Positions 21,919 to 49,390 of a stretch of DNA of 64,000 nucleotides are shown in pieces. How positions within the stretch are numbered: the stretch's first letter is position 1; each line of letters opens with the position of its first letter. A program made the translations under genes and the position numbers. The notes under the pieces were generated by a model. The model saw nothing but the letters and a program-made list of their open reading frames with translations, was not told where the DNA came from and ran no database searches. The stretch comes from Vicinamibacteria bacterium (GTDB lineage: Bacteria > Acidobacteriota > Vicinamibacteria > Marinacidobacterales > Marinacidobacteraceae), in assembly GCA_964291235.2 (NCBI GenBank), contig OZ219816.1, positions 768,001 to 832,000 of the forward strand, in the 5' to 3' direction.

Positions 21919-22077
21919 GGACGCGGTTGGTTTTGATTTTCGCGACGGGCTCCGCTGGGGGTGGATTCAGTTGGTGGACAAGGGGCCGGGGGCGGATAGG
22001 CCGCTCTCGGCGCGGGTGCGAATGAATGGGGAATGCGAGTTCGGCAAGGCCGAAGATGGACTACTGAAGGTGGAATC

Positions 22078-33867: not shown

Positions 33868-33922
33868 GCCCCCACTATAGGACCGGGGCGGTGACAAATC
33901 CCGTCCGGTCGCAATGGGGCCA

Positions 33923-34954
33923 TCAGGCGTGCGGAAGCCCACGCGTTGCCACGCGAAACCACATCCGGAGAGCGAAGTCCCAGCGGGCCAGGACGCTCGT
34001 CACCACCACCACGGCGCCGACGCTGAACGGGGACACCCGCACGTTCCGGCCGCGGCGGAAGGAGCGCGCCGTATGCACCCGCCGGAGCGCGAGCAGGGCC
34101 ATCCCCAGCGCCCACAGCAGGTGCCGGCGGATCCCGGTCTCGCGGGCAGGTATGAGCAGGGTGAATTCGAGGGCGTCCCCGAGGTGGCGCCGGGTGATTC
34201 CCACCAGTTGGGACAGCCCCGCCGCGAAGCCCGGAGCGTTGCCGCCGGCGCCAAGGTCGCTCAGATCGAATCCCGCCGCGTCGAACACGGTTCGCGGAAG
34301 CCAGCAGGCCCCCTGGGCCCGGTCATCCCACAGGTCCTTGAGGATGTTGGCCATCTGAAGTCCCTGAGCATGGGACCTGGCGAGCGCAACCAGTTCCTCG
34401 CGGCGCTCCCCGACGGCCGACGAGTAGTCGCAGAACAGCTCCACCAACATTTCGCCGACGACGCCGGCGGCGAAATAGCAGTAGCGGTCGAGCTGCGCCA
34501 TGTCCTTCAGGCCGATGGAGGGCGCATCCTGTTGGAACTCGACCATGCCGTGCGACATGGTCCGGATGCAGCGCTCGATGGCCATTCGCTGCCTCGGGCC
34601 AAACCCGGCCGTCACACGTACGACCCGGGCCGTGTTCGCGGCGAGGTGGTGCTCGGCCTCGGCGGTCGCCGGGGAGAGCGCTGGCGTCAGGTCGCCGGCG
34701 AAGGCGGCGGCGTCTTCTTCCCCGGCCACCACCCCGACGAAGCGCGTCCAGAGCGCCTGTTTCCGGGCGCGGGAAAGTTCCGGCTCGTCCTCGATGGTGT
34801 CCGCAATCCGGCAGAGCAGGTAGGCATTCCCCACTACGTCCCGCAGGCCCTCGGGCAGCACCGGAATCGTGAGCGCGTAGGTGCGCGAGACGGACTGCAG
34901 GATCTCCCGCTGGTAGGCCAGATCGCAGTCCGGGCCGGCTGGGGACGACCGCAG
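33923..34954 (-). CDS. Squalene/phytoene synthase family enzyme (single-enzyme SQS-like), probable CTG start
   Basis: VSRTYALTI, AYLLCRIADTIEDE, YCYFAAGVVG and GLQMANILKD. The conserved N-terminus lies upstream of the track's GTG at 34861. GGAG lies 6 nt before CTG 34954. Confidence 0.85.
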   Translation of the reverse strand: MRSSPAGPDCDLAYQREILQSVSRTYALTIPVLPEGLRDVVGNAYLLCRIADTIEDEPELSRARKQALWTRFVGVVAGEEDAAAFAGDLTPALSPATAEAEHHLAANTARVVRVTAGFGPRQRMAIERCIRTMSHGMVEFQQDAPSIGLKDMAQLDRYCYFAAGVVGEMLVELFCDYSSAVGERREELVALARSHAQGLQMANILKDLWDDRAQGACWLPRTVFDAAGFDLSDLGAGGNAPGFAAGLSQLVGITRRHLGDALEFTLLIPARETGIRRHLLWALGMALLALRRVHTARSFRRGRNVRVSPFSVGAVVVVTSVLARWDFALRMWFRVATRGLPHA

Positions 34955-34966
34955 TTCTGACTCCGT

Positions 34967-36181
34967 CTACCAGGTCTGTGTTTCGTCGGAGTGCAGCTTC
35001 GGCGGAAGACGGTAGGAGATCAGCGGATCGCGGAGCTCGGAGTTGTCCACGAGGGCGGTGAATCGGTCCACCTTCACCTTCGCTTCCCAGCGCGGCACCA
35101 CGCTGCGCAGCCGCTTCGCCAGGCGGCGTTTGGTCCGCAGGTACCAGAGCAGCCCCCAAGTGGACTGCGCCGGGTAGTTGATCTGGTCGGCGAGTTCGTC
35201 GCCGATGAGGGCGCGGGAAACGCGGTACACATAGTTGGCGAGGTTCTGCCGGTCCCTGGGCTTGTGGATGCCGATCACGACGGGCGCTGAATTGACCAGA
35301 GCGTTCGCTATCACGATGCCTTCCATGGTCGGCCGCGGCTCGCAGGCGATAGCAATCCGGCAGAGATCGAGCGCCTCCGCCTCGCTCCTGAACAGGATCG
35401 TTTCCGGAACGCCCATCAGGTATGCCGAGTAGCGCCAGATCTGGACGAACGCTTCGCTCTCCTCCGCCGTCGGCTCGGCGCCGAGCCGCTTCGCTGCCTC
35501 GATCACCCGCGCGGAGAAGTTGGCCGCCGCGAGCGCCACGTGACCGATATGGATCGGCACCCCGACTTCCGCCTCGTCCCACTCCTCGGATCTCCTCAGG
35601 AAGTATCGAACCTGGGCGTGGATGAGCCGGATCCGGACACTCAGTTTCCAACCCTCGCCGTAGCGTTCGAGTCCCCCCGGAATCATGATCTCGATGAGTT
35701 GGCGGATGTTCTGCCGGAGCCGGCGGACCCCGTGGTCCGTCAGCCTCCCGGTCATGAAGAACGACTTGCTGATGAGGGTGGTGAAGCCCCAGACGATGCT
35801 CGATCCCACCAACGCCTGGACGTAGAGATCCGAGTCGGCATGGAACGCCCGGCATCCCGGACAGACCGCTCGCGAATCGAACCAGTCCGGCTTGTCGGAA
35901 CTGAATTCCATGAGCTCCCTGAGTTCCGCCGACGCGTCCCGAAAGCCGGCCTCGTCCTCCTCCATCCCCGCCGTGATGATCTCGTGGACCCGTTTCTGGG
36001 GCATGCCGACCATGGACTCGACCGCCGCATCCGCGAGCGGGTCCCCCTTCGCCGTGTGCTTGATATAGCGGCGCGCCGCCTCCGGATCGGTCCAGCGCGC
36101 CTTCTCGTAGCCGGTGCGGTACGCGGTCGGAACAACGATCTCCGGAGATCGCGGTGCGGATCGCTCCTGGCGCGTGGACAT
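34967..36181 (-). CDS. DUF2236 / MpaB / Lcp-like heme oxygenase
   Basis: GDPLADA, PDWFD, TGRL, RIRLIHAQVR (Lcp-type heme-ligand His motif) and WRYSAYLMGVP. Confidence 0.8.
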   Translation of the reverse strand: MSTRQERSAPRSPEIVVPTAYRTGYEKARWTDPEAARRYIKHTAKGDPLADAAVESMVGMPQKRVHEIITAGMEEDEAGFRDASAELRELMEFSSDKPDWFDSRAVCPGCRAFHADSDLYVQALVGSSIVWGFTTLISKSFFMTGRLTDHGVRRLRQNIRQLIEIMIPGGLERYGEGWKLSVRIRLIHAQVRYFLRRSEEWDEAEVGVPIHIGHVALAAANFSARVIEAAKRLGAEPTAEESEAFVQIWRYSAYLMGVPETILFRSEAEALDLCRIAIACEPRPTMEGIVIANALVNSAPVVIGIHKPRDRQNLANYVYRVSRALIGDELADQINYPAQSTWGLLWYLRTKRRLAKRLRSVVPRWEAKVKVDRFTALVDNSELRDPLISYRLPPKLHSDETQTW

Positions 36182-36190
36182 GCTATGACC

Positions 36191-36226
36191 GACCGAATCG
36201 ACCGGAATGACCGAAACGCCCGAAGT
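36191..36226. repeat. Four degenerate 9-bp tandem repeats in the oxygenase leader
   Basis: gaccgaatc gaccggaat gaccgaaac gcccgaagt. Confidence 0.6.
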
Positions 36227-36227
36227 G

Positions 36228-36490
36228 GCCGCGCGAACTGTATACCTGACTCATTTCGACGTACGCCCTTGGCTATGGCGGGACCGGACGCTATCTCTTC
36301 CCCGCGGCAACCCGAAGCCGGCGCCAGCCATGCTGTAGCGGGCGGGAACGATGAGCGGAGTCAACGGGATAGCGAAGGCGGGCGACCTCGGCGAAGCACT
36401 CCCGGGAGGCGCGCTTGCCCGCCGCAAGGCAGGTCCGGCTCGTCTTGGATGGTGTCCGTGATGCCGCATCGCAGATAAGTGTTTCCACCG
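36228..36490 (-). repeat. Duplicated upstream block, copy A (promoter-like sequence plus RND and SQS relics)
   Basis: aactgtatacctgac...ttggc.atggc.ggaccgg...gcgacc..ggcgaagcac...aggtccggctcg is shared with 39948-40215. The minus strand reads YLRCGITDTIQDEPDL, an SQS relic. Confidence 0.75.
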
Positions 36491-36730
36491 GCCCCGCCAT
36501 GCCGCGTCAGAGGCAGGGGCCGCTGGAAAACGGCCCAATGGAGACGCAAGCGAGAGCACGACTAGAGTAGTCGAATAGGGGTGGCGATTTCGGGACTCTC
36601 AACAACATTCAATGATGAAAGCGCGGCTTTCTGAGAACGGCGGCTGGCCGGCGGGTTCCGCGAACTGCGCGCGAATACCTCGATGAGCACGGGATCGACG
36701 AATCGCTGGTTAGTCCGAGCAGGCCCCGCG

Positions 36731-39700
36731 TCACCGTAAGGAGTGCCGTCCGCCGGCGGCAAGGCTGTATAGGGCCGGGACGATGAGAAGCGTCACGAAC
36801 GTGGCGAAGGCGACCCCGAAGGCGAGCGAGGCGGCCATCGGAATGAGGAACTGCGCCTGGATGCTGCGTTCGGCCATCAGCGGCGCGAGCCCGGCGAAGG
36901 TAGTCACCGAGGTAAGAATGATGGGGCGGAAGCGAAGGGGTCCCGCGGCGAGCAATGCCTCCCGGGTGGACGCCCCGTCGCGGCGGGCCCGATTGACGAA
37001 GTGGAGCAGGACCAGGGCGTCGTTCACCACGATCCCCACGAGTGGGACCATGCCGAGGAAACTCGGCATGGAGAGTTCGACCCCCATGATGACGTGGCCA
37101 AAGATGGCGCCCGCGAGACCGAACGGCACCGCGGCCATGATGACGAACGGCTGGATCCAGGAGGAAAGCGGAACGGCAAGCAGGACATAAATCAGGATCA
37201 GGGCGAACAGCAGGTGCCGCCTGAGGGCCTCCAGGGTTTCGGCCTGGTCCCCGGCAAGGCCGACAACTTCGAACCGGAGGTCGGGGAACCCCTCCTGAAG
37301 TTGCGAGAGCCCTCGACTGCGGAGATCGCTCAACAGGGCTCCTGCGGAGGCGACGGCCGGGTCTACGTTGGCGTGGACGGTGACCGCCCGTCGGCCGTCC
37401 ACTCGGTGGATCAGGGCCAGCCTCTCGGTTCGGACGACCTCCGCGACCCCGCCGATGGGCGCCGCCACCCCATCCGCCCGCCGCACCCGCATTTCCGTCA
37501 CGCTCTCCGGGCGGGTCCGCTCGCTCGCCGGGTATCGCAGCAGAATCCGGATCTCGTCGCGACCCCGCTGGATTCGCTGGACCTCTTCCCCGTAGAAGGC
37601 CTGGCGGAGTTGCTTTCCGAACTCGGCCGCGCCGATGCCGATGCCGGCGCCCTCGGAGCGGACTCGCGCGACCAGTTCCGGGGCGCTCCCTTCAAGGTCG
37701 TCAGTAACCGCAATGACCCCCCGGTATTCGTCGAACAGCGCCCGGAGCGCCGCCGACCCGTCCCGGAGGCTCGCCATCGTGCTCCCGCTGACCCGAACCG
37801 AGATGTCCGCCCCCTCTCCCAGGAACGAGGTCACGACCGCGACCTCCGCGCCGTGCGGCAGCGAACTGGCAAGGGCGCGCAGCCGGTCGCCAATCTCGCG
37901 GGTCGTGAAGCCGGTCCGCCGCTCGGGGGGGATGAGTTCCAGCACCACCTGGCCGATCGTCGTCCCGGCGCCGCTCCCCGACCCTCCGAAGACGCCGCCG
38001 CTCGGATCGGCGGCCAGCCGCTGCCCCACGATGGCCGCCAGATTCTGCTGCGGGTCCACACCGTACTCCTCGCGTATCTGTTCGCGAATCCGGGCAACGG
38101 CGGCTTCGAGTTCCGCGACCGCTTCCGCCGTGGCGCCGGCCGGGGAACCCGGCGGCAGCGAAACCTGGGCGGTCACCAGATCGCTGTCGAACGGAGGGGT
38201 CGGCTCCACCGGCACCCAACCCCCAGCCACCAGACCGCCCGCCAGGGAGAGGGCCCCGATCCCCAGCGCGACCGTCGCCAGCCGGTTGCGCAGTGACCAG
38301 GCGAGGGCGGGGCGGTAGCAGGTGTCCCGGGCCCAGGCGAGCGCGCTCTGAAGTGCCGTCCGGAGGCGCGCCAGGCGGGGGTTGCCCCGGACCGCGAGTC
38401 CGCCGTGGGCGAGGTGGTGGGGCAGGATCCAGGCTGCTTCCAGGAGCGAGAAAGCGAGCACCGGAATCACGATGCGGGGGAGCGTCCCCATGAGTTCGCC
38501 CCAGATTCCCGGCAAGCCCAGGAGCGGTGCGAACGCCGCCATGGTGGTCAGGACGCCGAAGGCCGCCGGAAAGAGCACCTGCCGTACTCCCTGGACGGCA
38601 GCCTCCTCGGCGTCCGCATTCCCCGTGGAGGCATGGCGTTCGACGTTTTCTCCGACGATGATGGCGTCGTCCACGACGATCCCCAGGGTCAGGATGAACC
38701 CGAAGAGACTGATCATGTTGACCGTGACCCCGAGCCCCGGCATCATCAGGAACGCGCCGAAGAACGCCACCGGAAGCCCGGCGGCGGTCCAGACGGCGAG
38801 CCGGCTCGACAGGGTGAAAAAGAGGACGAGGAAAATCAGCGCCAGCCCCTGAAGCCCGTTCCGGACCAGCACGTCCATCCGACTCTCGAAGAGTTGCCAG
38901 GCGTCGAACCAGGTACGGACCGAGAGTCCTTCCGGCAGGGCGCTCTCGACGGCGCGGATCTCGGCATGGACCGCGTTCGCGGTGTCGAGGAGGCGCGCGC
39001 CGGGAGCCAGCATCACCTCCATCAGCACCGCGGGCTCCCCGTTCATCCGCGCCGCCCGCTCCACATCGGCGAAACCGTCGGTTACGGCCGCAATGTCCCC
39101 AACTGTGACCACGCCGCCGCCGGGCGATGCGATCAGCGCAATGCCGGCGAAGTCCTCGGCGGTCAACGCCTCCGCCTGGGTGCTCACCCGCAGCTCTCCG
39201 CTGGCCGCGCGGATTGCGCCACCCGGGACGTCGGCCGAGCCGCGGCGGATGGCGGCGGCGACCTGGTCGAAGGTGAGCCCGAAGCGGGTGAGGACTTCCT
39301 CCGGGATCTCTATGGAGATCTCGTAGTCCCGCCCCGTGACGATCTCGACCCTCGCCACTCCGGTGACGGGGGCGAGCGCGTCCCGGACGCGGTGGGCGGC
39401 CTCGGTAAGCGTGCGCTCATCCGCTTCGCCGTGCACCGCAATCCGGAGCAGGAAGCGGTTCGGGACCACCTCCGAGATCACCGGTTCCTCGGCGTCCTCG
39501 GGGAGCGTGGTCGAAGACTCCACCCGCTCCCGAACCTCGTCGCTCACGCTCCGGAAGTCGGCCCATCGCTCCACCTCGATCGTGAGGACCCCGAGTCCCT
39601 CGGCCGCCACCCCGGCGACCTCCTTGATCCCCGAGATGTCGCGGAGGGCCTCCTCCAGACCGAGGAGAACACCCTCCTCGACGACTTCCGCCCCCGCGCC

Positions 39701-39895
39701 CGGGAAAACGGTCCTCACGGTCAGGGCCGAGGATTGCGTCTCGGGGATCATCTCCTGCGGAATCCCGGAGGCAACGAGGAGGCCGCCCAGCGAAATTCCG
39801 AACAGCAGGAGATTCGCTGCCACCCGGTTTCTGACGAACCAGGAAATCACGCCCGCGAGCGAGCGCGTTCCCACGGACGACGAAGGCGTTTCCAC
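36731..39895 (-). CDS. RND efflux permease (AcrB family), paralog 1
   Basis: WFVRNRVAANLL, GIVVDDAIIVGEN, GIVVNDAL and RFRPIILT. GTG 39895 has GAGGG upstream. Confidence 0.93.
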   Translation of the reverse strand: METPSSSVGTRSLAGVISWFVRNRVAANLLLFGISLGGLLVASGIPQEMIPETQSSALTVRTVFPGAGAEVVEEGVLLGLEEALRDISGIKEVAGVAAEGLGVLTIEVERWADFRSVSDEVRERVESSTTLPEDAEEPVISEVVPNRFLLRIAVHGEADERTLTEAAHRVRDALAPVTGVARVEIVTGRDYEISIEIPEEVLTRFGLTFDQVAAAIRRGSADVPGGAIRAASGELRVSTQAEALTAEDFAGIALIASPGGGVVTVGDIAAVTDGFADVERAARMNGEPAVLMEVMLAPGARLLDTANAVHAEIRAVESALPEGLSVRTWFDAWQLFESRMDVLVRNGLQGLALIFLVLFFTLSSRLAVWTAAGLPVAFFGAFLMMPGLGVTVNMISLFGFILTLGIVVDDAIIVGENVERHASTGNADAEEAAVQGVRQVLFPAAFGVLTTMAAFAPLLGLPGIWGELMGTLPRIVIPVLAFSLLEAAWILPHHLAHGGLAVRGNPRLARLRTALQSALAWARDTCYRPALAWSLRNRLATVALGIGALSLAGGLVAGGWVPVEPTPPFDSDLVTAQVSLPPGSPAGATAEAVAELEAAVARIREQIREEYGVDPQQNLAAIVGQRLAADPSGGVFGGSGSGAGTTIGQVVLELIPPERRTGFTTREIGDRLRALASSLPHGAEVAVVTSFLGEGADISVRVSGSTMASLRDGSAALRALFDEYRGVIAVTDDLEGSAPELVARVRSEGAGIGIGAAEFGKQLRQAFYGEEVQRIQRGRDEIRILLRYPASERTRPESVTEMRVRRADGVAAPIGGVAEVVRTERLALIHRVDGRRAVTVHANVDPAVASAGALLSDLRSRGLSQLQEGFPDLRFEVVGLAGDQAETLEALRRHLLFALILIYVLLAVPLSSWIQPFVIMAAVPFGLAGAIFGHVIMGVELSMPSFLGMVPLVGIVVNDALVLLHFVNRARRDGASTREALLAAGPLRFRPIILTSVTTFAGLAPLMAERSIQAQFLIPMAASLAFGVAFATFVTLLIVPALYSLAAGGRHSLR

Positions 39896-39947
39896 TGGGG
39901 TTCCCTCGAACCTGAGGTGGTCCGACTGCTGGCGAATCTCCCGGACC

Positions 39948-40215
39948 GACCGCGCCAACTGTATACCTGACGCATTCCGGCGTATGCCTTGGCCATGGCC
40001 GGACCGGGGCGGGAACGGGCGCTGACTCCTGCCCCAGCAACGGGGATCCGTCGTCAGCCAGGCGTTAGAGACCGGGAGCGATGAGCAGGGTCACCAGGGT
40101 GGCGATGGCGAGCGACCTGGGCGAAGCACCCCCGGGGCGCGCATTTCCGCGTCGTGGGAAAGGTCCGGCTCGGCGTGGGTGATATCCGTGACGTGGTGTA
40201 ACAACCAGCCGTTTT
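39948..40215 (-). repeat. Duplicated upstream block, copy B
   Basis: Homologous to 36228-36490. The minus strand reads AIATLVTLLIAPGL*, compared with the RND C-terminus AFATLVTLLIVPAL. Confidence 0.75.
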
Positions 40216-40348
40216 CAAGGGCTCTTCGATATCTCATGAGTGGCACCAGTCATTCAGTAAAGGCACAATAGAGAGATATCTGCAATGAAAATCCTGGAAT
40301 TGGAACCAATTCATGACACGCCCGCGATTTCCTGAGAGTGGCGAGTGG

Positions 40349-41713
40349 ATGGAATCCAGCAGAATCGTCATCATCGGAGGCGGTCTCGCCGGGCTGAGCG
40401 CCGCCTACACCCTGAGAAAGCGCGGCCTGCGTCCCGTGCTGCTCGAGGCGGGCGACCGGGTGGGCGGACGCGCGCTCGGCGACCGGGTGGACGGCTTTGC
40501 GCTGGATGCGGGTGCGGACTTCTTCTGCTCGTCCTACGACGTCGCGTTTCGCATCTGCAAGGAACTGGAGTTGCCCCTGCTTCGTTCAAAGATGAACCTT
40601 GGCTGGTACAGAAACGGGCGATGGGTGCTGACGAGGCCGCCCGAGTCCATTGCTGCCGTCACCCGGAGTCTCAAGGCGTTCTGGGTGTTGGGCTTCATGT
40701 CGCCCCGCGTAGTCTGGTCGTTCGCAAGGTTGGCCCGGGAGATTCGCCAGCACTCGGACTACCTCAGTTTCGCTGGCGACAGCCGCATCGTCGAGCTTGA
40801 CGGGGAGGAGACTTTCGGCGACTACCTGAACAGGCTGGGAGTGCCCGAGTCCTTGAAGGTGACGCTCCGTGGATTCCTGGAGATGACGATGGGCCGTGTC
40901 GAGCGCTCCGGGGCGGCGTACATGCGGACCTATCTGGCGGAGATGCTGCTGAAGAGCGATCAGCTCTACGTGCCGGAGAAGGGCGCGGGCGCACTCACCC
41001 GCGCCTTGGCCGAGGCATGCGGCGACACCATTCGGGTCTCAACGCCGGTCCGGCGCGTCGTCATCCGGGATGGGCTGGTGACCGGGGTCGTGACGGGTCA
41101 CGGCCTTGTGGAGGCGGACGCGGTCATCTGCGCCATCCCCGCCACCAGGGTCTCGGACATCATTCCCGACCTGCCGGCCGGGGTTCGGACCACGCTCGAC
41201 AGCGTCAGCTATTCGAGCGGTTGCCGCGTGGTGATCGGCCTCGACCACCCGCCGCTTCCCCCGGGATGGCACGGCGCGTTGTACCCCGAGGACGACACCC
41301 CGCTCCTGCTCGACCGGTCCATCAACCTGCCCGCATGCGCGCCGCCCGGCAAGAGTACTCTGGATCTGCTCGTGGGTCGCGGCCGTGCCGAGGAACTGCT
41401 GCCGCTGGACGATGAGGAGATCAAGCGCCGAATGCTCGCCGACGTGCGTCGCAATCCCCCTCCGGGGTCGGCGCTGCCGAGCGACGACGAAGGGCTGTTT
41501 ACTCGCATCTACCGTTGGCCGGAGGCCGTGTGCATGGCACGGCCGGGCATGTTCAGGAAGGTGGCGGACATGCGTCGTCAACTCGGGGGAGAGGTAAGGA
41601 ACCTCTTCCTAGCGGGTGACTACCTGCGGGTACCGTCGGTCAACGGCGCTCTGGCGAGCGGCGTCGGAGCGGCCGGTGAGGCGGCGGACCTGGTGGTGTC
41701 TCAGCGGGCTTAG
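40349..41713 (+). CDS. FAD-dependent oxidoreductase (HemY / amine oxidase / phytoene desaturase superfamily), paralog 1
   Basis: IIGGGLAGLSAAY, LEAGDRVGGR, DAGADFF and LFLAGDY...VNGALASG. Confidence 0.85.
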   Translation: MESSRIVIIGGGLAGLSAAYTLRKRGLRPVLLEAGDRVGGRALGDRVDGFALDAGADFFCSSYDVAFRICKELELPLLRSKMNLGWYRNGRWVLTRPPESIAAVTRSLKAFWVLGFMSPRVVWSFARLAREIRQHSDYLSFAGDSRIVELDGEETFGDYLNRLGVPESLKVTLRGFLEMTMGRVERSGAAYMRTYLAEMLLKSDQLYVPEKGAGALTRALAEACGDTIRVSTPVRRVVIRDGLVTGVVTGHGLVEADAVICAIPATRVSDIIPDLPAGVRTTLDSVSYSSGCRVVIGLDHPPLPPGWHGALYPEDDTPLLLDRSINLPACAPPGKSTLDLLVGRGRAEELLPLDDEEIKRRMLADVRRNPPPGSALPSDDEGLFTRIYRWPEAVCMARPGMFRKVADMRRQLGGEVRNLFLAGDYLRVPSVNGALASGVGAAGEAADLVVSQRA

Positions 41714-41714
41714 G

Positions 41715-41917
41715 CTCAGGAAGGGTTCACGGACAGTTCGGGCTGCGCCGGACGGATGAGATCCCCGCTGTCCCGCGCGGGTGGCGTCGATCGTGAGAAT
41801 GATCGGCCGGAAGCGCCGGGTGGAGTTCGCGGTCCCGGTATCGATCCTCGCGATGACCCACTCTCCCTCGCCTCGGGAAGCGGTGCGAACGCCGACATGC
41901 AGGATGGGTTGACCCAT
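41715..41917 (-). pseudogene. Collapsed RND permease remnant
   Basis: The minus strand reads ...WVIAR...TAN-STRRFRPIILT, which looks like an RND N-terminus (GVIAW...AAN) joined to the C-terminal RRFRPI(I/M)LT motif. Confidence 0.5.
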
Positions 41918-41973
41918 CGGCTTCCTTCCGGTGTACTGGCTTGGTGAACGGTCCGTTGCCTCCGAGAGGGTGG

Positions 41974-43338
41974 GTGGATTCCAGCAGAATCGTCATCATC
42001 GGAGGAGGCCTCGCCGGGCTGAGCGCCGCCTACGCCCTGGGGAAGCGCGGCCTCCGTCCCGTGCTGCTCGAGGCCGGCGACCGGGTGGGCGGACGCGCCC
42101 TCGGCGACCGGGTGGACGGCTTTCGGCTGGATGCGGGTGCGGATTTCTTCTGTTCGTCCTACGATGTCGCCTTTCGGCTATGCGAGGAGTTGGGGGTGTC
42201 CCTCCTGCGCTCGCAGATGAACCTCGGCTGGTACCGAAACGGCCGTTGGGTTGTTACGAAGCCGCTCCAGTCCCTGGGTGCTGCCCTCACGGATCTGCGT
42301 TCCTTTCGGGCGATGGGGGTCTTTTCCCCGCGTTCCGCTTGGGCGCTCCTGAGGCTCGTCGGGGGAATCCACCGACAGGCGAGTTACCTCAACTTCCGGA
42401 GCGACTGCCCCATCGCGGAACTGGACGCGGAGGAGACCTTCGGCGAGTACCTGGAGCGGCTGGGCGCCCCCGAGTCGCTGAAACTGCTCCTCAAGGGGTT
42501 CCTGGAGATGACGATGGGTCGCGTCGAGCGCTCCGGAGCGGCGTACATGCGTACCTACATAGCCGAGATGCTGTTGAAGAACCACCTCATCTACGTGCCG
42601 GAGCGGGGCGCCGGCGCGCTCGCCCACGCCCTGGCCGCGGCATGCGGCGACGCTATTCGGGTCTCAACGCCGGTCGGGCGCGTGGTCATCCGGGACGGGT
42701 TGGTGACCGGGGTAGCGACGGGTCACGGCCTCGTGGAGGCGGACGCGGTCATCTGCGCCGTGCCGGCGACCCGGGTGCCGAACCTCATTCCCGACCTCCC
42801 GGCAGGGATTCGTCACGCGCTCGACAGCGTCAGCTATTCGACTGGTTGCCGCGTGGTGATCGGCCTCGACCACCCGCCGCTTCCCCCCGGATGGCACGGC
42901 GCGCTGTACCCCGAGGACGACACGCCGCTGCTGCTGGACCGCTCCATCAACCTGCCCGCGTGCGTGCCCCCCGGCAAGAGCACTCTGGATCTGCTCGTGG
43001 GTCGCGGCCGCGCCGAGGAACTGCTGCCGCTGGACGATGAGGAGATCAAGCGCCGAATGCTCGCCGACGCGCGTCGCAATCCCCCTCCGGGGTCGGCGCT
43101 GCCGAGCGACGACGAAGGGCTCTTTACCCGCATCTACCGTTGGCGGGAGGCCGTGTGCATGGCCCCGCCGGGCATGTTCCGGGCGATGTCGCAAACGCGC
43201 CGCAGGCTCCGCCGCGAGGTCCCGAACCTCTTCCTGGCGGGCGACTACCTGCGGGTGCCTTCGGTCAACGGCGCCCTCGCCAGCGGCTGCGCGGCGGCCG
43301 GCGAGGCGGCGGATCTGATGCGATCCCAGCCGGCGTAG
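41974..43338 (+). CDS. FAD-dependent oxidoreductase, paralog 2
   Basis: Same motifs as paralog 1, with long near-identical stretches. Confidence 0.85.
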   Translation: MDSSRIVIIGGGLAGLSAAYALGKRGLRPVLLEAGDRVGGRALGDRVDGFRLDAGADFFCSSYDVAFRLCEELGVSLLRSQMNLGWYRNGRWVVTKPLQSLGAALTDLRSFRAMGVFSPRSAWALLRLVGGIHRQASYLNFRSDCPIAELDAEETFGEYLERLGAPESLKLLLKGFLEMTMGRVERSGAAYMRTYIAEMLLKNHLIYVPERGAGALAHALAAACGDAIRVSTPVGRVVIRDGLVTGVATGHGLVEADAVICAVPATRVPNLIPDLPAGIRHALDSVSYSTGCRVVIGLDHPPLPPGWHGALYPEDDTPLLLDRSINLPACVPPGKSTLDLLVGRGRAEELLPLDDEEIKRRMLADARRNPPPGSALPSDDEGLFTRIYRWREAVCMAPPGMFRAMSQTRRRLRREVPNLFLAGDYLRVPSVNGALASGCAAAGEAADLMRSQPA

Positions 43339-43354
43339 GTGGGCTTCGGCTCGT

Positions 43355-46300
43355 TCAGGGGGTCCTGCGGAAGACGCCGAAGGCATCGTCGGCGAGGCTG
43401 CAGAGCGCCGGCACGATCAAGAGAGTGACCAGGGTGGCGAAGGCCACGCCGAAGGCGAGAGAGACGGCCATCGGCACCAGCAGTTGCGCCTGGACACTCT
43501 GCTCCAGCATCAGGGGAGCAACCCCCGCGCAGGTGGTGACCGTCGTGAGCATGATCGGCCGGAAGCGCCGCGGGCCCGCCCGGAGCGCCGCCTCGGTGGC
43601 CGACAGGCCGCGGCGGCGCTCCCGGTTGAAGAAGTCGAGCAACACGAGGGCGTCGTTCACCACGATCCCGACGAGCGGCACCATGCCGAACACGCTCGTC
43701 ATGGACAGGTCCATGCCCAGGAGCGCGTGACCGAAGACGGCGCCCGCCAGGCCGAACGGAACCGCGGCCATGATGACGAACGGCTGGGTCCAGGAGGAAA
43801 GCGGCAGTGCCAACAACATGTAGATGAGCAGCATCGCGAGGAGGGCATTCCGACCGAGCGCCGCGAAGGTCTCTTCCTGCTCCCCCGCCATCCCCACCAC
43901 CTCGAAGAGAAGATCCGGGAAGCGTTCCGAGATCGCGGGAATGGACCGGTCGCGGACCCCGCCCAGCACGGCCGCTGGTGAGGCGAGAGCCGGGTCCACG
44001 CTGGCATGAACCGTGGCCGCCCGCCGTTCGTCCACCCGCTGGATGACCGGCAGGCCGTCCTCGCGGGCGAGTTCCGCGACCTGCTCAAGCGGCGCCCGGC
44101 TGGTATCGGGCCGCCGTACCTGCATCTCCCTGAGGCTGCCCAGGTCCTCGCGGCCCGCCCGTGAATAGCGAAGAAGAATCGGTACCTCGTCCCGTCCGCG
44201 CTGGATCCGCTGGATTTCCTCGCCGTGGAACGCCTGGCGCATCTGCCTGCCGAACTCCGCGGCGCTGATCCCGATCCCGGCGCCCTCCGGGCGGACGCGG
44301 GCAACGAGTTCGGGGGCCGGATCTTCGAGGTCGTCCCATGTGGAGACCACCCCCCGATAGTCGCGCAGCGCCGATTGGAAGGCAGCCGAGGCTTGCCGCA
44401 GTTCGTCCATGTCGGCGCCGCTGATGCGCACCGAGACGTCCGCGTCCTGGCCGAGTATCGAGGTCGACACACTCGCCTCGGCACCGTGCGGGAGGGTACG
44501 GACGGCAGCGCGCAGTTCATCGGCGAACTCTCCGGGCGAAAGCCCTACCTGCTCTTCGGCGGGGATCATCTCCAGCATCAGTTGCCCGATCGCCCCACCG
44601 GAACCGGCGGCCGCTCCTCCGGCGGGTCCGCCGGGCCCGAAGGACAGGGTCTGTCCCGTCAGGACGGCGAGATGGAGTTGCGGGTCCGCGCCGTGGAGTT
44701 CGCGATCCCGGTATCGAATCTCCGCGATGGCCGACTCCACCTCGCCGACCGCTTCCCTGGTCGCCTCGAAAGAAGAGCCCGGCGGAAGGGAAACCCGGGT
44801 GACCACCACATCGCCGTCGATGGGGGGGGCGGGGTTGACGGGAATCCAGCCCCCCTCGACCAGCCCCATCGAAAGGGCGAGGGAGAGGACCCCGAGCGCC
44901 AGGGTTGTCAGCCGGTTTCTCAGAGACCAACCCAGCACCGGCCGATACAGGGTGTCCGCGGTCCATTGGAGCCCCGACTGGATCCGCGCGCGCAGGGCGG
45001 CCACCCGGCGGCTGGGACGGACAGCCAACCCGCCGTGCGCCATATGGTGCGGCAGGATCCAGGCGGCATCCAGCAGCGAGAAGGCGAGCACCGGGATCGC
45101 GACGCGCGGCAGCTGCCCCATGACCTCGCCCCAAAAACCCGGCAGGCCGAGAAGGGGGGCGAAGGCGGCCATCGTGGTCAGGACCCCGAAGGCCGCCGGA
45201 AAGAGCACTTCGCGCACACCTCTGAGGGCCGCGGCTTCCTTGTCCCCCTTCGCCCCCGAGGTATGCCGCTCGATGTTCTCCCCGACGACGATGGCGTCGT
45301 CCACCACGATCCCGAGGGTCATGATGAACCCGAACAGGGTGAACATGTTCACGGTGACGCCCAGTCCGGGCATCATGAGGAAGCCCCCGAAGAATGCCGC
45401 CGGGAGGCCGGCGGCGGTCCAGACCGCGACCCGGCTCGAAAGGGTAAGGAAGAGCAGCAGGAAGATGAGCGTGAGGCCCTGGAGGCCGTTGCGAACCAGG
45501 ACATCCATGCGACTCTCGAAGAGAACGGCGGCGTCCAGCCAGGGAGTCACCTGCAGGCCGCCGGGCAGCGTGATCTCCCGCACCGCCGAACGAACGTCGG
45601 CGGCGGTTTCGACCAGGCGCGCCCCCGTCGCGAGCAGGACGTTCAGGAACACCGCGGGCTCGCCATCCATCCGCGCGATCCGATCGACGTCGGCGAACCC
45701 GTCGGTGACGGTCGCCACGTCCCCGACGGTCACGACGCCGCTTCCCGGAACGGCGATCAGCGGAATCCGGGCGAAGTCCTCGGCGGTCACCGCTTCTGCT
45801 TCCGTCCGGAACCGCACCTCCCCATCTCCCGTGCGGATCGCGCCGCCCGGCAGGTCCGCGGAGCCGCGCCGGAGAGCGGCGGCAACCTGATCGAGCGTCA
45901 GCCCGAATCGGGTCAGTACATCCCCCTCGATCTCGATCGCAACCTCGTATCGCCGACCGCTGACGATCTCCACCCTGGCGACTCCCGGCTCCGCGGAGAG
46001 CACCTCCCGCACCAGGTGCGCCGCTTCCGTCAGACTGCGTTCGTCGGCTTCGCCGTGGACAGCCACCCGGAGCAGCAGCCGCTCGACCGCCACTTCGGAA
46101 ATCACCGGATCTTCGGCGTCCTCCGGCAGGGTCGCGAGAGACTGGACGCGCTCCTTCACCGTGTCGGTGACGCGCTGGAATTCGGCCCAGGACTCCACCT
46201 GGACGGTCAGCAGACCGACGCCCTCGGACGCCATACCCGCGATCTCCTTGACGCCCGACACGTCGCGGAGAGCCTCCTCGAGGCGAAGCAGCACGCTCGC

Positions 46301-46519
46301 CTCGACGACCTCCGCGCTGGCTCCCGGGAAGACCGTGCGGATGGAGATTCCCGAAGTCTCGGTTTCGGGAATCAGCTCCTGCGGTACCCGTCCGACGGTG
46401 AGAAACCCCGCGACCGAGATCCCGAGCAGCAACAGATTCGCTGCCACCCGGTTCCGGACGAACCACGCGATCACCCCCCGCGAGGGTTCGGCCGCCGGGG
46501 TGGACGACGGGGTGTCCAA
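43355..46519 (-). CDS. RND efflux permease (AcrB family), paralog 2
   Basis: GIVVDDAIVVGEN and RRFRPIMLT. Clear paralog of 36731-39895. Confidence 0.93.
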   Translation of the reverse strand: MDTPSSTPAAEPSRGVIAWFVRNRVAANLLLLGISVAGFLTVGRVPQELIPETETSGISIRTVFPGASAEVVEASVLLRLEEALRDVSGVKEIAGMASEGVGLLTVQVESWAEFQRVTDTVKERVQSLATLPEDAEDPVISEVAVERLLLRVAVHGEADERSLTEAAHLVREVLSAEPGVARVEIVSGRRYEVAIEIEGDVLTRFGLTLDQVAAALRRGSADLPGGAIRTGDGEVRFRTEAEAVTAEDFARIPLIAVPGSGVVTVGDVATVTDGFADVDRIARMDGEPAVFLNVLLATGARLVETAADVRSAVREITLPGGLQVTPWLDAAVLFESRMDVLVRNGLQGLTLIFLLLFLTLSSRVAVWTAAGLPAAFFGGFLMMPGLGVTVNMFTLFGFIMTLGIVVDDAIVVGENIERHTSGAKGDKEAAALRGVREVLFPAAFGVLTTMAAFAPLLGLPGFWGEVMGQLPRVAIPVLAFSLLDAAWILPHHMAHGGLAVRPSRRVAALRARIQSGLQWTADTLYRPVLGWSLRNRLTTLALGVLSLALSMGLVEGGWIPVNPAPPIDGDVVVTRVSLPPGSSFEATREAVGEVESAIAEIRYRDRELHGADPQLHLAVLTGQTLSFGPGGPAGGAAAGSGGAIGQLMLEMIPAEEQVGLSPGEFADELRAAVRTLPHGAEASVSTSILGQDADVSVRISGADMDELRQASAAFQSALRDYRGVVSTWDDLEDPAPELVARVRPEGAGIGISAAEFGRQMRQAFHGEEIQRIQRGRDEVPILLRYSRAGREDLGSLREMQVRRPDTSRAPLEQVAELAREDGLPVIQRVDERRAATVHASVDPALASPAAVLGGVRDRSIPAISERFPDLLFEVVGMAGEQEETFAALGRNALLAMLLIYMLLALPLSSWTQPFVIMAAVPFGLAGAVFGHALLGMDLSMTSVFGMVPLVGIVVNDALVLLDFFNRERRRGLSATEAALRAGPRRFRPIMLTTVTTCAGVAPLMLEQSVQAQLLVPMAVSLAFGVAFATLVTLLIVPALCSLADDAFGVFRRTP

Positions 46520-46547
46520 GACGTGAACCCGGCCCCGACCTAGCGGC

Positions 46548-47741
46548 TCACTGCGGGTCTGAGGCCAGCGGCACTTCGTTGGCGGCTTCCACCAACGCCA
46601 CCCGCACCTCCATACCCTCGGTCACGATCGCGGGAGGATTCGTCACCACCCGCTCCCCGTCGCGGAGGCCGGCGCGCACCAGCAGGTTGCCGTCGCCGGA
46701 CGACCAGAAGGCGTCCACCTCACGGATCCGGATTCGGTCCCCGCTGTCCACCACGAGCACCCGTCCGTCCTCCCGGAACGCACTCCGCGGAACGACCGCG
46801 ATCTCCGGATACTCCCGACCCTCGATTTCGGCGCGCACGAACATCCCGGAGACCAGCGGGGGACGCCCCTCCGGTCCCGGCCCGTTGGGGTTCCTCACCT
46901 CGATCACCGCGGGGAAGAATCGCGTGGCGGGGTCCACCTCACCTTCCATCCGAACCAGCCGGCCTTCCCAGGTCCACGTGGACGACGCGAGCGCCGGTCC
47001 CAGGACCGCCGTCAGGCGCGCCCGCGGCCCCTGTCCCGAAGAAGCGCCTCCGAACGGAAGTTCCACCAGTTCGAGCGCGGCATCGGGCAGGGACACGCGT
47101 GTTTCCACCATATCCACTGCGAGCAGCTCGAGAAGCGGGACGCCGGGCGCGGCCCATTCTCCGACCTCTGCGTTCCGCTTTCCCACGAGGCCGGTGTGCG
47201 GCGCCCGCACCTCGGTCCGTTCCAGATCCCGCTCTGCCCGCTTGACCGCTGCCTCCGCGGCGGCAAGCGCCGCCCGGGCCGCCGCGAGTTGGGGAACCCT
47301 CAGCGCCAGCGGATCCGGCTCGGTCCCTTCTCCCGACCACTCCTCCTCCGCGAGCCGAGCCAACCCCTCTTCGGTCCGCAGCCGCAACCGGGTCGCTTCC
47401 AACTGGCTCTTCGCCTGGGCCACCGCGTGCTCATACGCCAGGGGTTCGATGCGGAAAAGGGCCGCTCCCTCTTCAACCCGATTTCCGTCCCGGAGGCCCG
47501 CGGCGGCCCACACCACCTGGCCTGCCACTTCGGCCGCGACGGTCGTTCGGTGTGCCGGACGCACCGCACCGTCGGCGCTCACCGTCACGCGGTGTGGTCC
47601 CACCCGGACGCGAACCGCGCGCACCTCCGGGGTCACGGTCTGAATTTCCTGGGCTTCGGGCTTCGGCCCGAGCGCCGTGAGCAGAGCCACCAGCACCGCC
47701 GCGGCCAGCAAAATGGGAATGAAGAGGAACTTCCGGAACAT
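46548..47741 (-). CDS. RND periplasmic adaptor (membrane fusion protein)
   Basis: N-terminal anchor, AEVAGQV, coiled hairpin, LERTEVRAP, GMFVRAEI and GLRDGERVV. Confidence 0.92.
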   Translation of the reverse strand: MFRKFLFIPILLAAAVLVALLTALGPKPEAQEIQTVTPEVRAVRVRVGPHRVTVSADGAVRPAHRTTVAAEVAGQVVWAAAGLRDGNRVEEGAALFRIEPLAYEHAVAQAKSQLEATRLRLRTEEGLARLAEEEWSGEGTEPDPLALRVPQLAAARAALAAAEAAVKRAERDLERTEVRAPHTGLVGKRNAEVGEWAAPGVPLLELLAVDMVETRVSLPDAALELVELPFGGASSGQGPRARLTAVLGPALASSTWTWEGRLVRMEGEVDPATRFFPAVIEVRNPNGPGPEGRPPLVSGMFVRAEIEGREYPEIAVVPRSAFREDGRVLVVDSGDRIRIREVDAFWSSGDGNLLVRAGLRDGERVVTNPPAIVTEGMEVRVALVEAANEVPLASDPQ

Positions 47742-49246
47742 CAGCGGGGACTCCCCGTCGAGCCGTCGGCCCCCGCCGGCGCGTCACCGTTCGCGCGTTC
47801 GAACCCGCCCCCGAGCGCCAGCGACAGGTTCACCCGGTTATCCAATCGAGCCCGCACCCGCGAGAGATGGCCGGACTCCGCCATCAGGACCGCCCGCTCC
47901 GCATCAAGCTCCGCCAGCCGCGAAACGAACCCGCTTCGACGCTGGGCCCCGGTTCGCGTCAACGCCCGCTGGCTCGCGGAAAGCGCCTCGGCCGACCGTG
48001 ACTCCACCTCGGAGAGCGCTTCCTCCGCTGACAACGCCGCTTCCACTTCTTGGTACGCCGTCAGAACCGTCCGGGCGTACACCGCGAGCGCCTCCCGGTC
48101 CCGCGCCTCCTCGTGGCGGATCTGCGCCCGGATGCGCCCCCCCTGGAACACCGGCGCCGCGATGCGGGCGATCAGGCTCCAGACCGAGAAATCCCCGTTT
48201 ACCAGGTCTTTCAGCCCGGTGGTGGCGGTGCCGGCCGAACTGGTCAGGGGGAACTGCGGATAGCGCGCCCGCCGCGCCATTTCGGTGAACTCCTTGGACA
48301 TCGCGAGCCGCCGCTCCGCGCTCGCCACGTCCGGACGCCGGGAAATGAGATCCGCCGGCGCCCCTGCCGGGACCGGGCTCCCGACCGCGGGAAGGCCGCC
48401 TCCGAGTTCCCAGTCCGGCCCCGGTTCCCCGTCGGGATAGTCGGTGAAGAGCACTTCGAGGCCCCGCACCGCCGCGGAAACCGCTTGGCGGCGGCTGGCG
48501 GCAGTCGCCCGCGCCTCGGCGAGCCGGGCTTTCGCGGCATCCACCTCGGCGAGCGCCGCTTCCCCGATCCGGGCCCGTTCGCCGGTCCACCGCACCGTCT
48601 CCTCCAGGCTCGCCGTGATTTCTTCGGCGATTCGGGCCTGTTCCCGGGCTTCGACCGCGAGGAAATACAGGCGTGCCGCCTGCCCCGCCAGCGAGACCCG
48701 CGCCCCTGCGACCTCGGCCACCGCCGCTCCCACCACCGCATTCGCGGCCCGCGCCCGCGGCGACGCCGCCCGCCAGAGATTCGCTTCCCAGGTCAGATCG
48801 AGCGAGAGCCCGTAGCGAACGAAGTCGGCGGTAAGTACGTCTTCCTCTCCGAGTCCCGGGATCGGCAGCCCGACGGAACCCGCGATGTCCGAAATGGGCA
48901 GCCCGATGAAGGCCTGCCGCGCCTGGATGCGTTCCACCCCGGTCCCGATCTGGGGATAGAGCGCACTTCGCGCCACTCCGGCGTCCGCCGCCGCCTGGGC
49001 CAGCCGGGCGGCCGCCTCCTGAAGCGTCAGGTTTCCCGAGAGCGCTCGCTCCACCACGCCGTCGAGCGCCGGATCCCCGAACGAGGTCCACCAGTCCGCC
49101 GCCGGCGTCTCGGCGACTTCCACGACCGCCGGTGCGGGGGTGAACTCGACCTCCGGGTCCGAAACGGGAATGCGCAGGCCGCCGCAGCCGAGGCAAAGCG
49201 AGACGGTCGCTCCGAGCGGGAGAAGGCGCTGTGCGGCGGTTCGCAT
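47741..49246 (-). CDS. Outer-membrane efflux lipoprotein (TolC/OprM family)
   Basis: Lipobox-like LCLGC, WWTSFGDPALD, PADLISRRPDVASAE and LSLALGGG. Start placed at ATG 49246. Confidence 0.92.
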   Translation of the reverse strand: MRTAAQRLLPLGATVSLCLGCGGLRIPVSDPEVEFTPAPAVVEVAETPAADWWTSFGDPALDGVVERALSGNLTLQEAAARLAQAAADAGVARSALYPQIGTGVERIQARQAFIGLPISDIAGSVGLPIPGLGEEDVLTADFVRYGLSLDLTWEANLWRAASPRARAANAVVGAAVAEVAGARVSLAGQAARLYFLAVEAREQARIAEEITASLEETVRWTGERARIGEAALAEVDAAKARLAEARATAASRRQAVSAAVRGLEVLFTDYPDGEPGPDWELGGGLPAVGSPVPAGAPADLISRRPDVASAERRLAMSKEFTEMARRARYPQFPLTSSAGTATTGLKDLVNGDFSVWSLIARIAAPVFQGGRIRAQIRHEEARDREALAVYARTVLTAYQEVEAALSAEEALSEVESRSAEALSASQRALTRTGAQRRSGFVSRLAELDAERAVLMAESGHLSRVRARLDNRVNLSLALGGGFERANGDAPAGADGSTGSPR

Positions 49247-49390
49247 AACGAGTGCCCGGAGTGTATTCGCTCGGCTCCGGCGGGCGTCGGAGCGTCCCGC
49301 CCTGTTGAAGGCAGAACCCCGGGTCGCGTACGATCGTGGGTTCAGACTGTGCCAATTCCTGGGCTTCGGCCTGTGCCATCGGAGGCTTTC

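Follow-up and report, generated by a model that had tools for sequence, protein, structure and literature searches.

The locus and its genes

We analysed a 64,000-nucleotide stretch of contig OZ219816.1 from a Vicinamibacteria bacterium (assembly GCA_964291235.2; the whole stretch is called the window below, and its G+C content is 64-72%). In it, a gene for a haem oxygenase of the MpaB/Lcp family (PF09995), here called mpaB, lies between the genes of a resistance-nodulation-division (RND) efflux system and a squalene synthase gene, sqs. A sequence-only reading had described an island composed of such an oxygenase, a squalene synthase (SQS)-like enzyme, two flavoproteins, two AcrB-type pumps, one membrane-fusion protein (MFP) and one outer-membrane factor (OMF). 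The window does contain all eight genes, each with a strong domain match (E 1e-17 to 1e-150 in Pfam), far beyond chance, but the island does not end at 49246 as had been proposed, since the OMF gene reaches about 49399. The minus-strand order is OMF, MFP, AcrB2, AcrB1, mpaB, sqs, AddB-like and AddA-like, with both flavoprotein genes on the plus strand between the permeases:

47741-49399, minus: outer-membrane factor of a tripartite RND pump, NodT type (Pfam OEP, 97 bits; NCBIfam outer_NodT, 221 bits against a cut-off of 210)
46548-47741, minus: membrane-fusion protein, the periplasmic adaptor (NCBIfam RND_mfp, 152 bits against a cut-off of 94.9)
43355-46519, minus: RND permease AcrB2 (ACR_tran, 501 bits)
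41941-43338, plus: flavoprotein 2, FAD amine-oxidase superfamily, convergent with AcrB2 (Amino_oxidase, 160 bits)
40313-41713, plus: flavoprotein 1, a paralogue of flavoprotein 2 (Amino_oxidase, 153 bits)
36731-39895, longest open reading frame to 39958, minus: RND permease AcrB1 (ACR_tran, 495 bits)
34967-36181, minus: mpaB, MpaB/Lcp-family haem oxygenase (MPAB_Lcp_cat, 63.5 bits, E 4e-17, cut-off 23)
33923-34954 (34861 if the start is GTG; frame open from 34966), minus: sqs, squalene synthase gene (SQS_PSY, 150 bits, E 1e-43)
27092-33942, minus: AddB-like and AddA-like nuclease-helicase genes, following sqs

The OMF and MFP genes overlap by 1 nt, AcrB2 follows the MFP gene after 28 nt on the same strand, and the three form a tripartite RND efflux system. 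Our Pfam scan took in 47 of the 49 open reading frames (ORFs) of at least 80 amino acids that we called in the 64 kb; the two left out, 36251-36559 and 41727-41999, lie in regions of gene relics. None of the 47 carries a squalene-hopene cyclase (SHC), oxidosqualene cyclase or squalene epoxidase domain, in agreement with the earlier statement that cyclase and epoxidase are absent from the window. The companion statement, that there is no hpnCDE, stands by curated cut-offs, and Pfam and NCBIfam scans of the ORFs revealed no further hpn gene in the window; it has to be qualified because the flavoproteins are HpnE-like, HpnE being their best NCBIfam match over the full length (85 and 101 bits, the latter for flavoprotein 2, against a cut-off of 283).

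The haem oxygenase

By sequence, the oxygenase matches just two chains in the PDB, both of the rubber oxygenase LcpK30 (5o1l and 5o1m, E 5e-12 and 7e-12). His198, Arg164, Arg195 and Arg202 of LcpK30 align with His188, Arg154, Arg185 and Arg192 of the oxygenase, and all four are invariant in 22 relatives; PMC5522427 and PMC6311187 give His198 as the proximal haem ligand and describe roles for Arg164 and other Lcp residues. In a fold search, the AlphaFold model of the oxygenase (pLDDT 85) found the same two Lcp structures (TM 0.61-0.69, probability 1.00, 19-20% identity over the fold alignment) and, as a weaker match that also has a probability of 1.00, t-anethole oxygenase, with no other convincing match; all three of these solved fold relatives are alkene-cleaving haem enzymes. 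A literature search on anethole oxygenase with heme yielded nothing relevant. By its Pfam domain, its equivalents of the haem histidine and of Arg164, and its predicted globin-like Lcp fold, the protein is a member of the MpaB/Lcp haem oxygenase family. Read directly from the sequence, its N-terminus has no hydrophobic signal region, and because no signal peptide is visible the enzyme is presumably cytoplasmic. The oxygenase has 1540 relatives of about 390 amino acids (269-507 among the 120 matches listed).

Linkage of the oxygenase to RND transporters across phyla

An alignment of the 22 MpaB relatives led to 460 related stretches, the best 80 of which were kept as 79 loci (labelled with L below) with flanks of 10 kb, all from metagenome-assembled genomes. 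The loci were compared by tblastn with the window proteins, by clustering of our own simply called ORFs, by Pfam and NCBIfam scans of cluster representatives and by family tblastn, and the counts rest on tblastn. Neighbours of mpaB were found as follows:

Any RND-superfamily permease: 48 of 79 within 10 kb, 43 within 500 nt
AcrB type: 14 of 79 within 10 kb, 10 within 500 nt
MMPL/HAE3 type: 35 of 79 within 10 kb, 33 within 500 nt
LolA-like protein: 21 of 79 within 10 kb
DUF1302 protein: 20 of 79 within 10 kb
sqs: 6 of 79 within 10 kb, 3 within 500 nt
Flavoprotein family: 5 of 79 within 10 kb, 3 within 500 nt
P450: 7 of 79 within 10 kb, 1 within 500 nt

All 43 adjacent permeases lie on the same strand as mpaB, and they come from at least six phyla. 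The partner transporters are AcrB-type tripartite pumps in Acidobacteriota, HAE3/MMPL proteins with LolA-like and DUF1302 proteins in Latescibacterota, and MmpL3-like proteins in Dehalococcoidia. Four operons recur:

OMF-MFP-AcrB-mpaB: Acidobacteriota
mpaB-MMPL-LolA_like-DUF1302: Latescibacterota
MMPL-mpaB: Dehalococcoidia
mpaB-acyltransferase-sulfotransferase: Nitrospirales, Longimicrobiales

What is conserved is thus a core of MpaB/Lcp-family haem oxygenase and RND-superfamily transporter, and not the whole island. The nine nearest loci (L001-L004 and L006-L010, oxygenase 84-89% identical) have M20, TPR, OMF, MFP and one AcrB gene, with mpaB 70-116 nt later; the order is OMF-MFP-RND-mpaB-addB-addA, and addB comes within about 35-70 nt after mpaB in the eight stretches long enough to show it. 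None of the nine has the flavoproteins or a second pump there, so that the island is not conserved as a unit. Co-occurrence in other genomes, on which that proposal had staked itself, holds for the oxygenase and its RND transporter and, for the full set, in two loci, and fails for sqs and the flavoprotein in most of the rest.

Where sqs does occur near mpaB (L005, L016, L023, L024, L042 and L065), it does so in three phyla and at least four different arrangements, for example as mpaB-P450-sqs in L024. Members of the flavoprotein family are found inside or beside mpaB operons in L032, L033, L040 and L065, where they are 51-75% identical to the window copies, and L016 has a relative at 38-39%. 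Their positions differ (within the operon in L040, between mpaB and MMPL, and in L032, behind mpaB-MMPL; ahead of mpaB in L033; behind a tandem pair of mpaB copies in L065), and the gap between mpaB and the flavoprotein gene is 19-58 nt in L040 and L065. The loci with sqs or flavoprotein beside the oxygenase belong to Acidobacteriota, Latescibacterota and Rhodothermales. The full set of sqs, mpaB, flavoprotein and OMF-MFP-RND pump recurs in L065 and, in another order, in L016. In L065 (Rhodothermales; 5154-12715), genes for a glycosyltransferase, a sulfotransferase, sqs, mpaB, an mpaB paralogue and the flavoprotein are followed by a convergent AcrB-MFP-OMF set, and the geometry of flavoprotein and pump is that of the window; in L016, the flavoprotein-like gene is followed by a 209-aa ORF, mpaB, sqs, addB and addA, with pump and P450 upstream. 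The P450, membrane acyltransferase and sulfotransferase genes at other mpaB loci have lipid or secondary-metabolite tailoring functions.

Two side observations concern these loci. In L059, L067, L045, L057, L061 and L037 (Nitrospirales, Longimicrobiales, Entotheonella), mpaB is followed by an Acyl_transf_3 membrane acyltransferase gene, a sulfotransferase gene or both, with no RND gene there. The bins of L011, L014, L046 and L048 are labelled Gammaproteobacteria or Gemmatimonadetes, and their mpaB genes are nearly identical to acidobacterial or latescibacterotal ones; these labels probably reflect binning noise rather than gene transfer.

The squalene synthase gene

Both Asp-rich motifs of Sqs, DTIED and DLWDD, are intact and align with the SQS motifs of 3wca, and its best matches in the PDB are the trypanosomal and human squalene synthases. 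Scores on the curated Sqs (TIGR01559), HpnC and HpnD models are 63-65 bits each, below their cut-offs of 250-287. The family is large (7687 hits among 8000 candidates scored, the top 120 at 59% identity or more), and 89 relatives longer than 608 amino acids could be surveyed for fused domains:

Squalene-hopene cyclase domain: 37 of 89, 43-55% identity to the window Sqs
Squalene epoxidase: 28 of 89, 32-37% identity
FMN_dh domain: 9 of 89, 54-57% identity
IspH: 6 of 89, 44-63% identity
DXS: 3 of 89, 52-54% identity
HpnH: 1 of 89, 50% identity
No listed partner or other combinations: 5 of 89 (SQS_PSY alone, polyprenyl synthase, partial cyclase domain, multidomain protein)

On the strength of the fusions to SHC and isoprenoid enzymes, the two intact motifs and the best solved relatives, the predicted protein is a genuine member of the squalene synthase family; the natural fusions support the SQS-like assignment made earlier. 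We also considered whether Sqs might be a non-catalytic homologue of the complex-I assembly-factor kind, but its two Asp-rich motifs and the fusions of its relatives to SHC, DXS and IspH led us to reject the idea.

The start of the gene is unusual. Its open frame begins at 34966, immediately behind the mpaB stop codon, and is in phase with mpaB, the TAG at 34969-34967 being all that parts the two. The full frame has 347 open codons, and at the expected start position there is a CTG (34954-34952), six bases after GGAG (34964-34961). A start at the GTG at 34861 would give a truncated Sqs of 312 amino acids, since the conserved N-terminal helix (…DLAYQREILQSVSRTYALTI…) is encoded upstream of it; the database copy of the window Sqs has this truncated form, and the other relatives among the matches listed have 342-398 amino acids, except for three. 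A fusion of MpaB and SQS, or read-through between them, was rejected: in five relatives sqs is a separate gene, in other phases with respect to mpaB and with its own ATG or GTG 10-13 codons ahead of the DLAYQ motif. Furthermore, none of the 89 long Sqs relatives carries PF09995, and the MpaB relatives have 269-507 amino acids among the 120 listed, no search having been aimed at long ones. The spacer between the two genes is shorter in the window than in the relatives.

The flavoproteins

Flavoproteins 1 and 2 are 80% identical to each other and belong to a small family, with 87 representatives at E<=1e-30 among 1.84 billion, many of them fragments. None of 44 aligned members is close to a named family, the best E-value being 1.9e-31 for HpnE. 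On the protoporphyrinogen oxidase (PPOX) model proto_IX_ox (TIGR00562) they score 55 and 57 bits (57 for flavoprotein 2) against a cut-off of 97.85, which, by curated cut-off, speaks against the suggestion that they might be ordinary protoporphyrinogen oxidases. Their match to the CrtI/CrtN phytoene-type desaturases is confined to the N-terminal FAD-binding 50 residues (crtI_fam, 39-40 bits against a cut-off of 238). By curated cut-offs, then, they are neither HpnE nor PPOX, and on this comparison of profiles they are a rare, uncharacterised clade of the amine-oxidase superfamily. Fold comparison did not serve to class them: the AlphaFold model of flavoprotein 2 (pLDDT 93) matches PPOX/CgoX (TM 0.72-0.75), monoamine oxidase and phytoene desaturase about equally (TM 0.68-0.75 overall), with no separation of PPOX from the other two. 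A look-up of flavoprotein 2 in the ESM Atlas returned just generic FAD-oxidoreductase clusters.

History of the locus

The sequence-only reading had pointed to shared upstream blocks and gene relics, and both are real by repeat search, tblastn and blastn:

36186-36486, minus: relic block B, upstream of mpaB; acrB 3' end and acrB-mpaB spacer joined to a piece of the sqs 5' region, a putative tandem-duplication junction
39902-40228, minus: relic block A, upstream of AcrB1; sqs 5' fragment, acrB 3' end, acrB-mpaB spacer and flavoprotein fragment
41771-41849, minus: acrB 3'-region relic between the flavoprotein genes; direct repeats D9 and D20 share 87-90% identity with the DNA that encodes AcrB2

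The two blocks are 72-74% alike (36212-36461 against 39933-40191). In tblastn they contain sqs 5' fragments (36430-36486 and 40157-40228) and acrB 3'-end fragments (36302-36379 and 40050-40112, with a third at 41771-41849), and block A also a flavoprotein fragment (39902-39955). For block B, the tblastn matches are to SQS residues 46-64 (E 3e-6) and to the AcrB C-terminus (E 0.002), and in blastn 36186-36380 matches the acrB-mpaB junction of relatives and 36383-36486 the sqs of L005, L016 and L065. For block A, 39933-40113 matches, at 68-79%, DNA just upstream of mpaB in L001-L010, L005 included; the relic at 41771-41849 matches AcrB2 residues 984-999 and 600-616 (tblastn, E 0.001-0.006). Since a piece of sqs joined to an acrB end is what a tandem duplication of acrB…mpaB…sqs leaves behind, we interpret blocks A and B as duplication junctions followed by deletions, and the fragments at 39902-39955 and 41771-41849 would show further rounds of duplication. 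An Rfam scan of 33000-50000 (E<=1) gave one sub-threshold small RNA match inside AcrB2 and nothing else, so the blocks correspond to no known riboswitch or RNA, and a scan for promoters and terminators found sites in numbers not above those in shuffled sequence.

In our reading, the flavoproteins and the second permease arrived by local duplication and rearrangement. AcrB1, whose start is probably a GTG near 39895 by alignment with AcrB2, is 66% identical to AcrB2. AcrB1 is 69-78% identical to the single permease of L001-L010 (77-78% for L001-L004 and L006-L010), and AcrB2 67-69%; by these identities, AcrB1 is the orthologue of the relatives' single permease, and AcrB2 a more divergent paralogue that now lies beside MFP and OMF. 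The OMF and MFP themselves are 77-85% and 79-87% identical, respectively, to the syntenic genes of the relatives.

In a quick, midpoint-rooted tree of the mpaB genes, the sqs-linked L023 and L016 are at the base of the acidobacterial clade and the window groups with the sqs-bearing L005. On this basis the mpaB-sqs neighbourhood is probably ancestral in the acidobacterial clade and was lost in genomes of the L001 type. The ratio of non-synonymous to synonymous substitution rates (dN/dS) is 0.20-0.30 for sqs, mpaB, both flavoproteins and both permeases (0.25 between AcrB1 and AcrB2, 0.30 between flavoproteins 1 and 2), which indicates purifying selection on the copies; sqs may have lost its start recently, despite this selection. 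Between the window and L005 (region 33923-36181), synonymous divergence (dS) is 0.65 for sqs and 0.18 for the adjacent mpaB. It thus appears that the two neighbours did not share one history, and recombination or gene conversion with paralogues may be the cause. In L005, the closest sqs-bearing relative, a Mutator-family transposase gene (8422-9684) lies between the pump operon and mpaB, which fits a locus prone to rearrangement.

Function of the locus

Our analysis suggests that the locus is probably a mosaic with a function in the modification and export of terpenoids. In its full form, which we hold only tentatively and at somewhat less than an even chance, the reading is that an old two-part core, a cytoplasmic MpaB/Lcp haem oxygenase behind an RND efflux system (OMF-MFP-RND-mpaB), has received three additions and modifies and then exports an endogenous squalene-type isoprenoid. 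The additions would be sqs, as a genuine squalene synthase gene immediately after mpaB, the pair of FAD flavoprotein paralogues from the rare amine-oxidase clade, and a second RND permease. Starting from the gene identities, the linkage across phyla and the purifying selection that we observe, the substrate, the order of the steps and the direction of transport might be as follows: Sqs would condense two farnesyl diphosphates to squalene, the flavoprotein would oxidise or desaturate squalene or a derivative of it, the haem oxygenase would use O2 to cleave or oxygenate a C=C bond of the isoprenoid, and the RND system would deliver the resulting hydrophobic compound to the outer membrane or outside the cell. 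The more specific chemistry of the sequence-only reading, desaturation or cleavage of a C30 backbone to apo-terpenoids, is a plausible proposal. In favour of the modify-and-export reading are the oxygenase-RND linkage, the recurrence of sqs, the rare flavoprotein in mpaB operons and the full set in L065 and L016, along with the Sqs fusions, the fold shared with Lcp and t-anethole oxygenase, the dN/dS values, the basal position of L023 and L016 and the tailoring genes at other mpaB loci.

Several observations weigh against it. Thr168, Lys167 and Glu148 of Lcp are replaced by Asn158, Gln157 and Ile137 in the oxygenase (the alignment is weak around Glu148), and because of these replacements Lcp-type chemistry is not assured; Thr168 is conserved in 99.6% of 495 Lcp homologues (PMC6311187), and Lys167, the distal ligand, and Glu148, the base, are pocket residues of Lcp (PMC5522427, PMC6311187). 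The flavoprotein and the second permease are absent at the locus in nine of the nine nearest relatives, and sqs in eight of the eight that can be judged downstream (the stretch of L003 ends about 200 nt after mpaB), from which it follows that the core works without these genes nearby. More widely, 73 of the 79 loci have no sqs within 10 kb and 74 no flavoprotein. The flavoprotein genes of the window, being on the opposite strand, are not co-transcribed with mpaB. The sqs frame has no ATG, GTG or TTG before the GTG at 34861, nor one at the conserved start position, and on this evidence sqs may be poorly translated or recently inactivated. Finally, most members of the very large Sqs family clearly serve other pathways, for example that of hopanoids, and none of the 89 long Sqs relatives is fused to PF09995 or to the amine-oxidase domain PF01593.

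Some of these facts would be accounted for if the system were catabolic or protective, the oxygenase cleaving and the RND system expelling exogenous hydrophobic alkenes (terpenoids, carotenoids, prenylated aromatics) from the surroundings or a host, with sqs and the flavoproteins accidental neighbours brought in by rearrangement and engaged in ordinary membrane-lipid synthesis. The oxygenase-RND pair is mostly kept without sqs or flavoprotein within 10 kb (a permease at 48 of 79 loci against sqs at 6 and the flavoprotein at 5), the nearest relatives lack both additions at the locus, and genomes may carry several mpaB paralogues in different contexts, L001 and L012 being on one chromosome and L024 and L032 on another. 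On the other side, the transporters paired with mpaB comprise MmpL3-like ones and HAE3 types accompanied by LolA-like proteins, kinds that typically export the cell's own lipids, and the recurrence of sqs, P450, acyltransferase and sulfotransferase genes near mpaB looks biosynthetic. While the closest solved relative, Lcp, is described as a catabolic enzyme in PMC5522427, it is there extracellular, whereas the oxygenase has no signal peptide visible in its sequence. We consider an outside substrate somewhat unlikely.

Alternatively, the genes could be ordinary parts with no joint function, namely a multidrug-type efflux operon, a squalene synthase for squalene or hopanoid metabolism and housekeeping flavoproteins (for example for tetrapyrrole oxidation), gathered by tandem amplification and decay. 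The relic junctions speak of repeated duplication and deletion, a transposase sits inside the same locus in L005, dS differs three-fold between the adjacent mpaB and sqs in the comparison with L005, and the fold search cannot part the flavoprotein from PPOX or CgoX. Against this, the flavoproteins fall short on the PPOX model, their family is rare, which is unexpected for a housekeeping enzyme, and sqs and the flavoprotein recur independently beside mpaB in three phyla; by our own rough estimate of about one sqs per 4 Mb genome, about 0.4 chance sqs neighbours would be expected in 79 windows of 20 kb. A purely accidental assembly is, in our view, unlikely. A further possibility, that the island is decaying in this genome, with sqs a pseudogene that lacks a start and the duplicated copies of pump and flavoprotein being lost, would explain the missing canonical start before 34861 in spite of the conserved N-terminal helix upstream, the shortness of the database Sqs beside all but three of the other relatives among the matches listed, and the many relics. 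It has to contend with a sqs frame that is open over all its codons and has both catalytic motifs, with the CTG placed six bases after GGAG at the expected start, and with dN/dS of 0.21-0.30 for sqs and both flavoprotein copies, and we regard decay as very improbable.

Across the loci, the data show the pairing of a haem oxygenase of alkene-cleaving type with lipid-type RND transporters, with sqs, the rare flavoprotein, P450s, acyltransferases and sulfotransferases as recurrent optional partners. The modify-and-export reading can be extended to a bolder one, in which this MpaB/Lcp subfamily would be an intracellular dioxygenase that cleaves squalene or another polyprenyl to apo-squalenoid aldehydes or ketones, RND lipid transporters would carry these to the surface, and the flavoprotein would be a new squalene-modifying FAD enzyme, the module being present in at least six phyla of uncultured bacteria. 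We judge this extension decidedly unlikely as it stands. Oxidative cleavage of squalene to geranylacetone-type products was reportedly observed in bacteria decades ago, and a literature search for that report found nothing relevant; an intracellular squalene-cleaving dioxygenase, if real, would give this activity a gene.

Relation to known systems

Lcp (for example LcpK30) has the same Pfam domain and fold as the window oxygenase, and the proximal haem histidine and the equivalents of Arg164, Arg195 and Arg202 are conserved. The two differ in that the oxygenase has just 19-20% identity over the fold, has Asn, Gln and Ile in place of Thr168, Lys167 and Glu148, has no visible signal peptide where Lcp is secreted, and lies in an efflux-pump operon rather than in a rubber-degradation context; by these residues and the missing secretion signal, it does not appear to be an Lcp proper, i.e. 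a rubber oxygenase. The fungal MpaB', of the same Pfam family, cleaves the farnesyl side chain in mycophenolic acid synthesis and is comparable, by family and by this role, in acting on an isoprenoid chain within a biosynthetic pathway, but it is eukaryotic and bound to the endoplasmic reticulum. Its role is mentioned in a preprint (10.64898/2025.12.11.692455).

The window Sqs resembles bacterial one-step Sqs in both DxxxD motifs and in belonging to a family fused to SHC, IspH, DXS and HpnH in other bacteria. The Sqs/HpnCDE route has a counterpart in the flavoproteins, both of which can be aligned along the whole HpnE model, but the scores (63-65 bits against 250-287 for Sqs, 85-101 against 283 for the flavoproteins) fall short of those families, and the window has no cyclase or other hpn gene. 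Among RND lipid exporters (HpnN for hopanoids, MmpL3 for mycolates), MMPL proteins with LolA-like partners serve aryl-polyene clusters. The HAE3/MMPL neighbours of mpaB in other phyla are weakly similar to HpnN and MmpL3, occur with LolA-like proteins, and likewise pair a lipid exporter with a lipid-modifying enzyme; their scores are, however, far under the family cut-offs, and the window pump is of the AcrB-type tripartite kind. With two paralogous permeases, one MFP and one OMF, the window also recalls pumps of the MdtABC/MuxABC type, but relics and two genes of the opposite strand lie between its permease genes, local duplication gave rise to the pair, and on the MdtB and MdtC models the score is about 230 bits, where the cut-offs are near 1600-1800.

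Literature searches on DUF2236, on bacterial MpaB oxygenase and on MpaB with squalene synthase found no description of such a cluster, and one on Marinacidobacter found no paper. While the parts are known families, neither their combination nor the oxygenase-exporter module found across phyla seems to have been described, and the gene content suggests a cluster of terpene type that has an unusual tailoring enzyme and its own dedicated pump. To our knowledge, all characterised PF09995 members, along with one other solved fold relative, cleave carbon-carbon double bonds. If a cytoplasmic bacterial member is indeed wired to squalene synthase and lipid exporters, the roles of the family, so far rubber degradation and one fungal drug pathway, would come to include lipid biosynthesis in bacteria. 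The pairing of oxygenase and RND transporter persists in Acidobacteriota, Latescibacterota, Chloroflexota and other phyla, in genomes recovered just as metagenome bins, and so may be a trait widely shared in those communities. The enzymes encoded by sqs, mpaB and the flavoprotein genes are small and soluble.

Other features of the window

The AddA/AddB-like pair downstream of sqs (27092-33942) scores far under the curated AddAB models, for example 47 bits against 486 on addB_alphas, and is a divergent form of the repair nuclease. At 23879-26182 there is a gene for a 767-aa protein whose C-terminal half is a FAD_binding_3 monooxygenase and whose 390-aa N-terminal part has no Pfam match; it adjoins a short-chain dehydrogenase gene, which, apparently like the 767-aa gene itself, is present also in relatives without sqs. 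Two patches, 4001-6000 and 20001-22000, have lower G+C fractions (0.637 and 0.645, against about 0.69 elsewhere) and contain short ORFs without a family match, and a 1006-aa ORF at 5944-8964 has no Pfam match. At 2281-16743, cobalamin salvage genes of the CobT, CobS and CobU types occur with a TonB-dependent receptor and FecCD/ABC transport genes.

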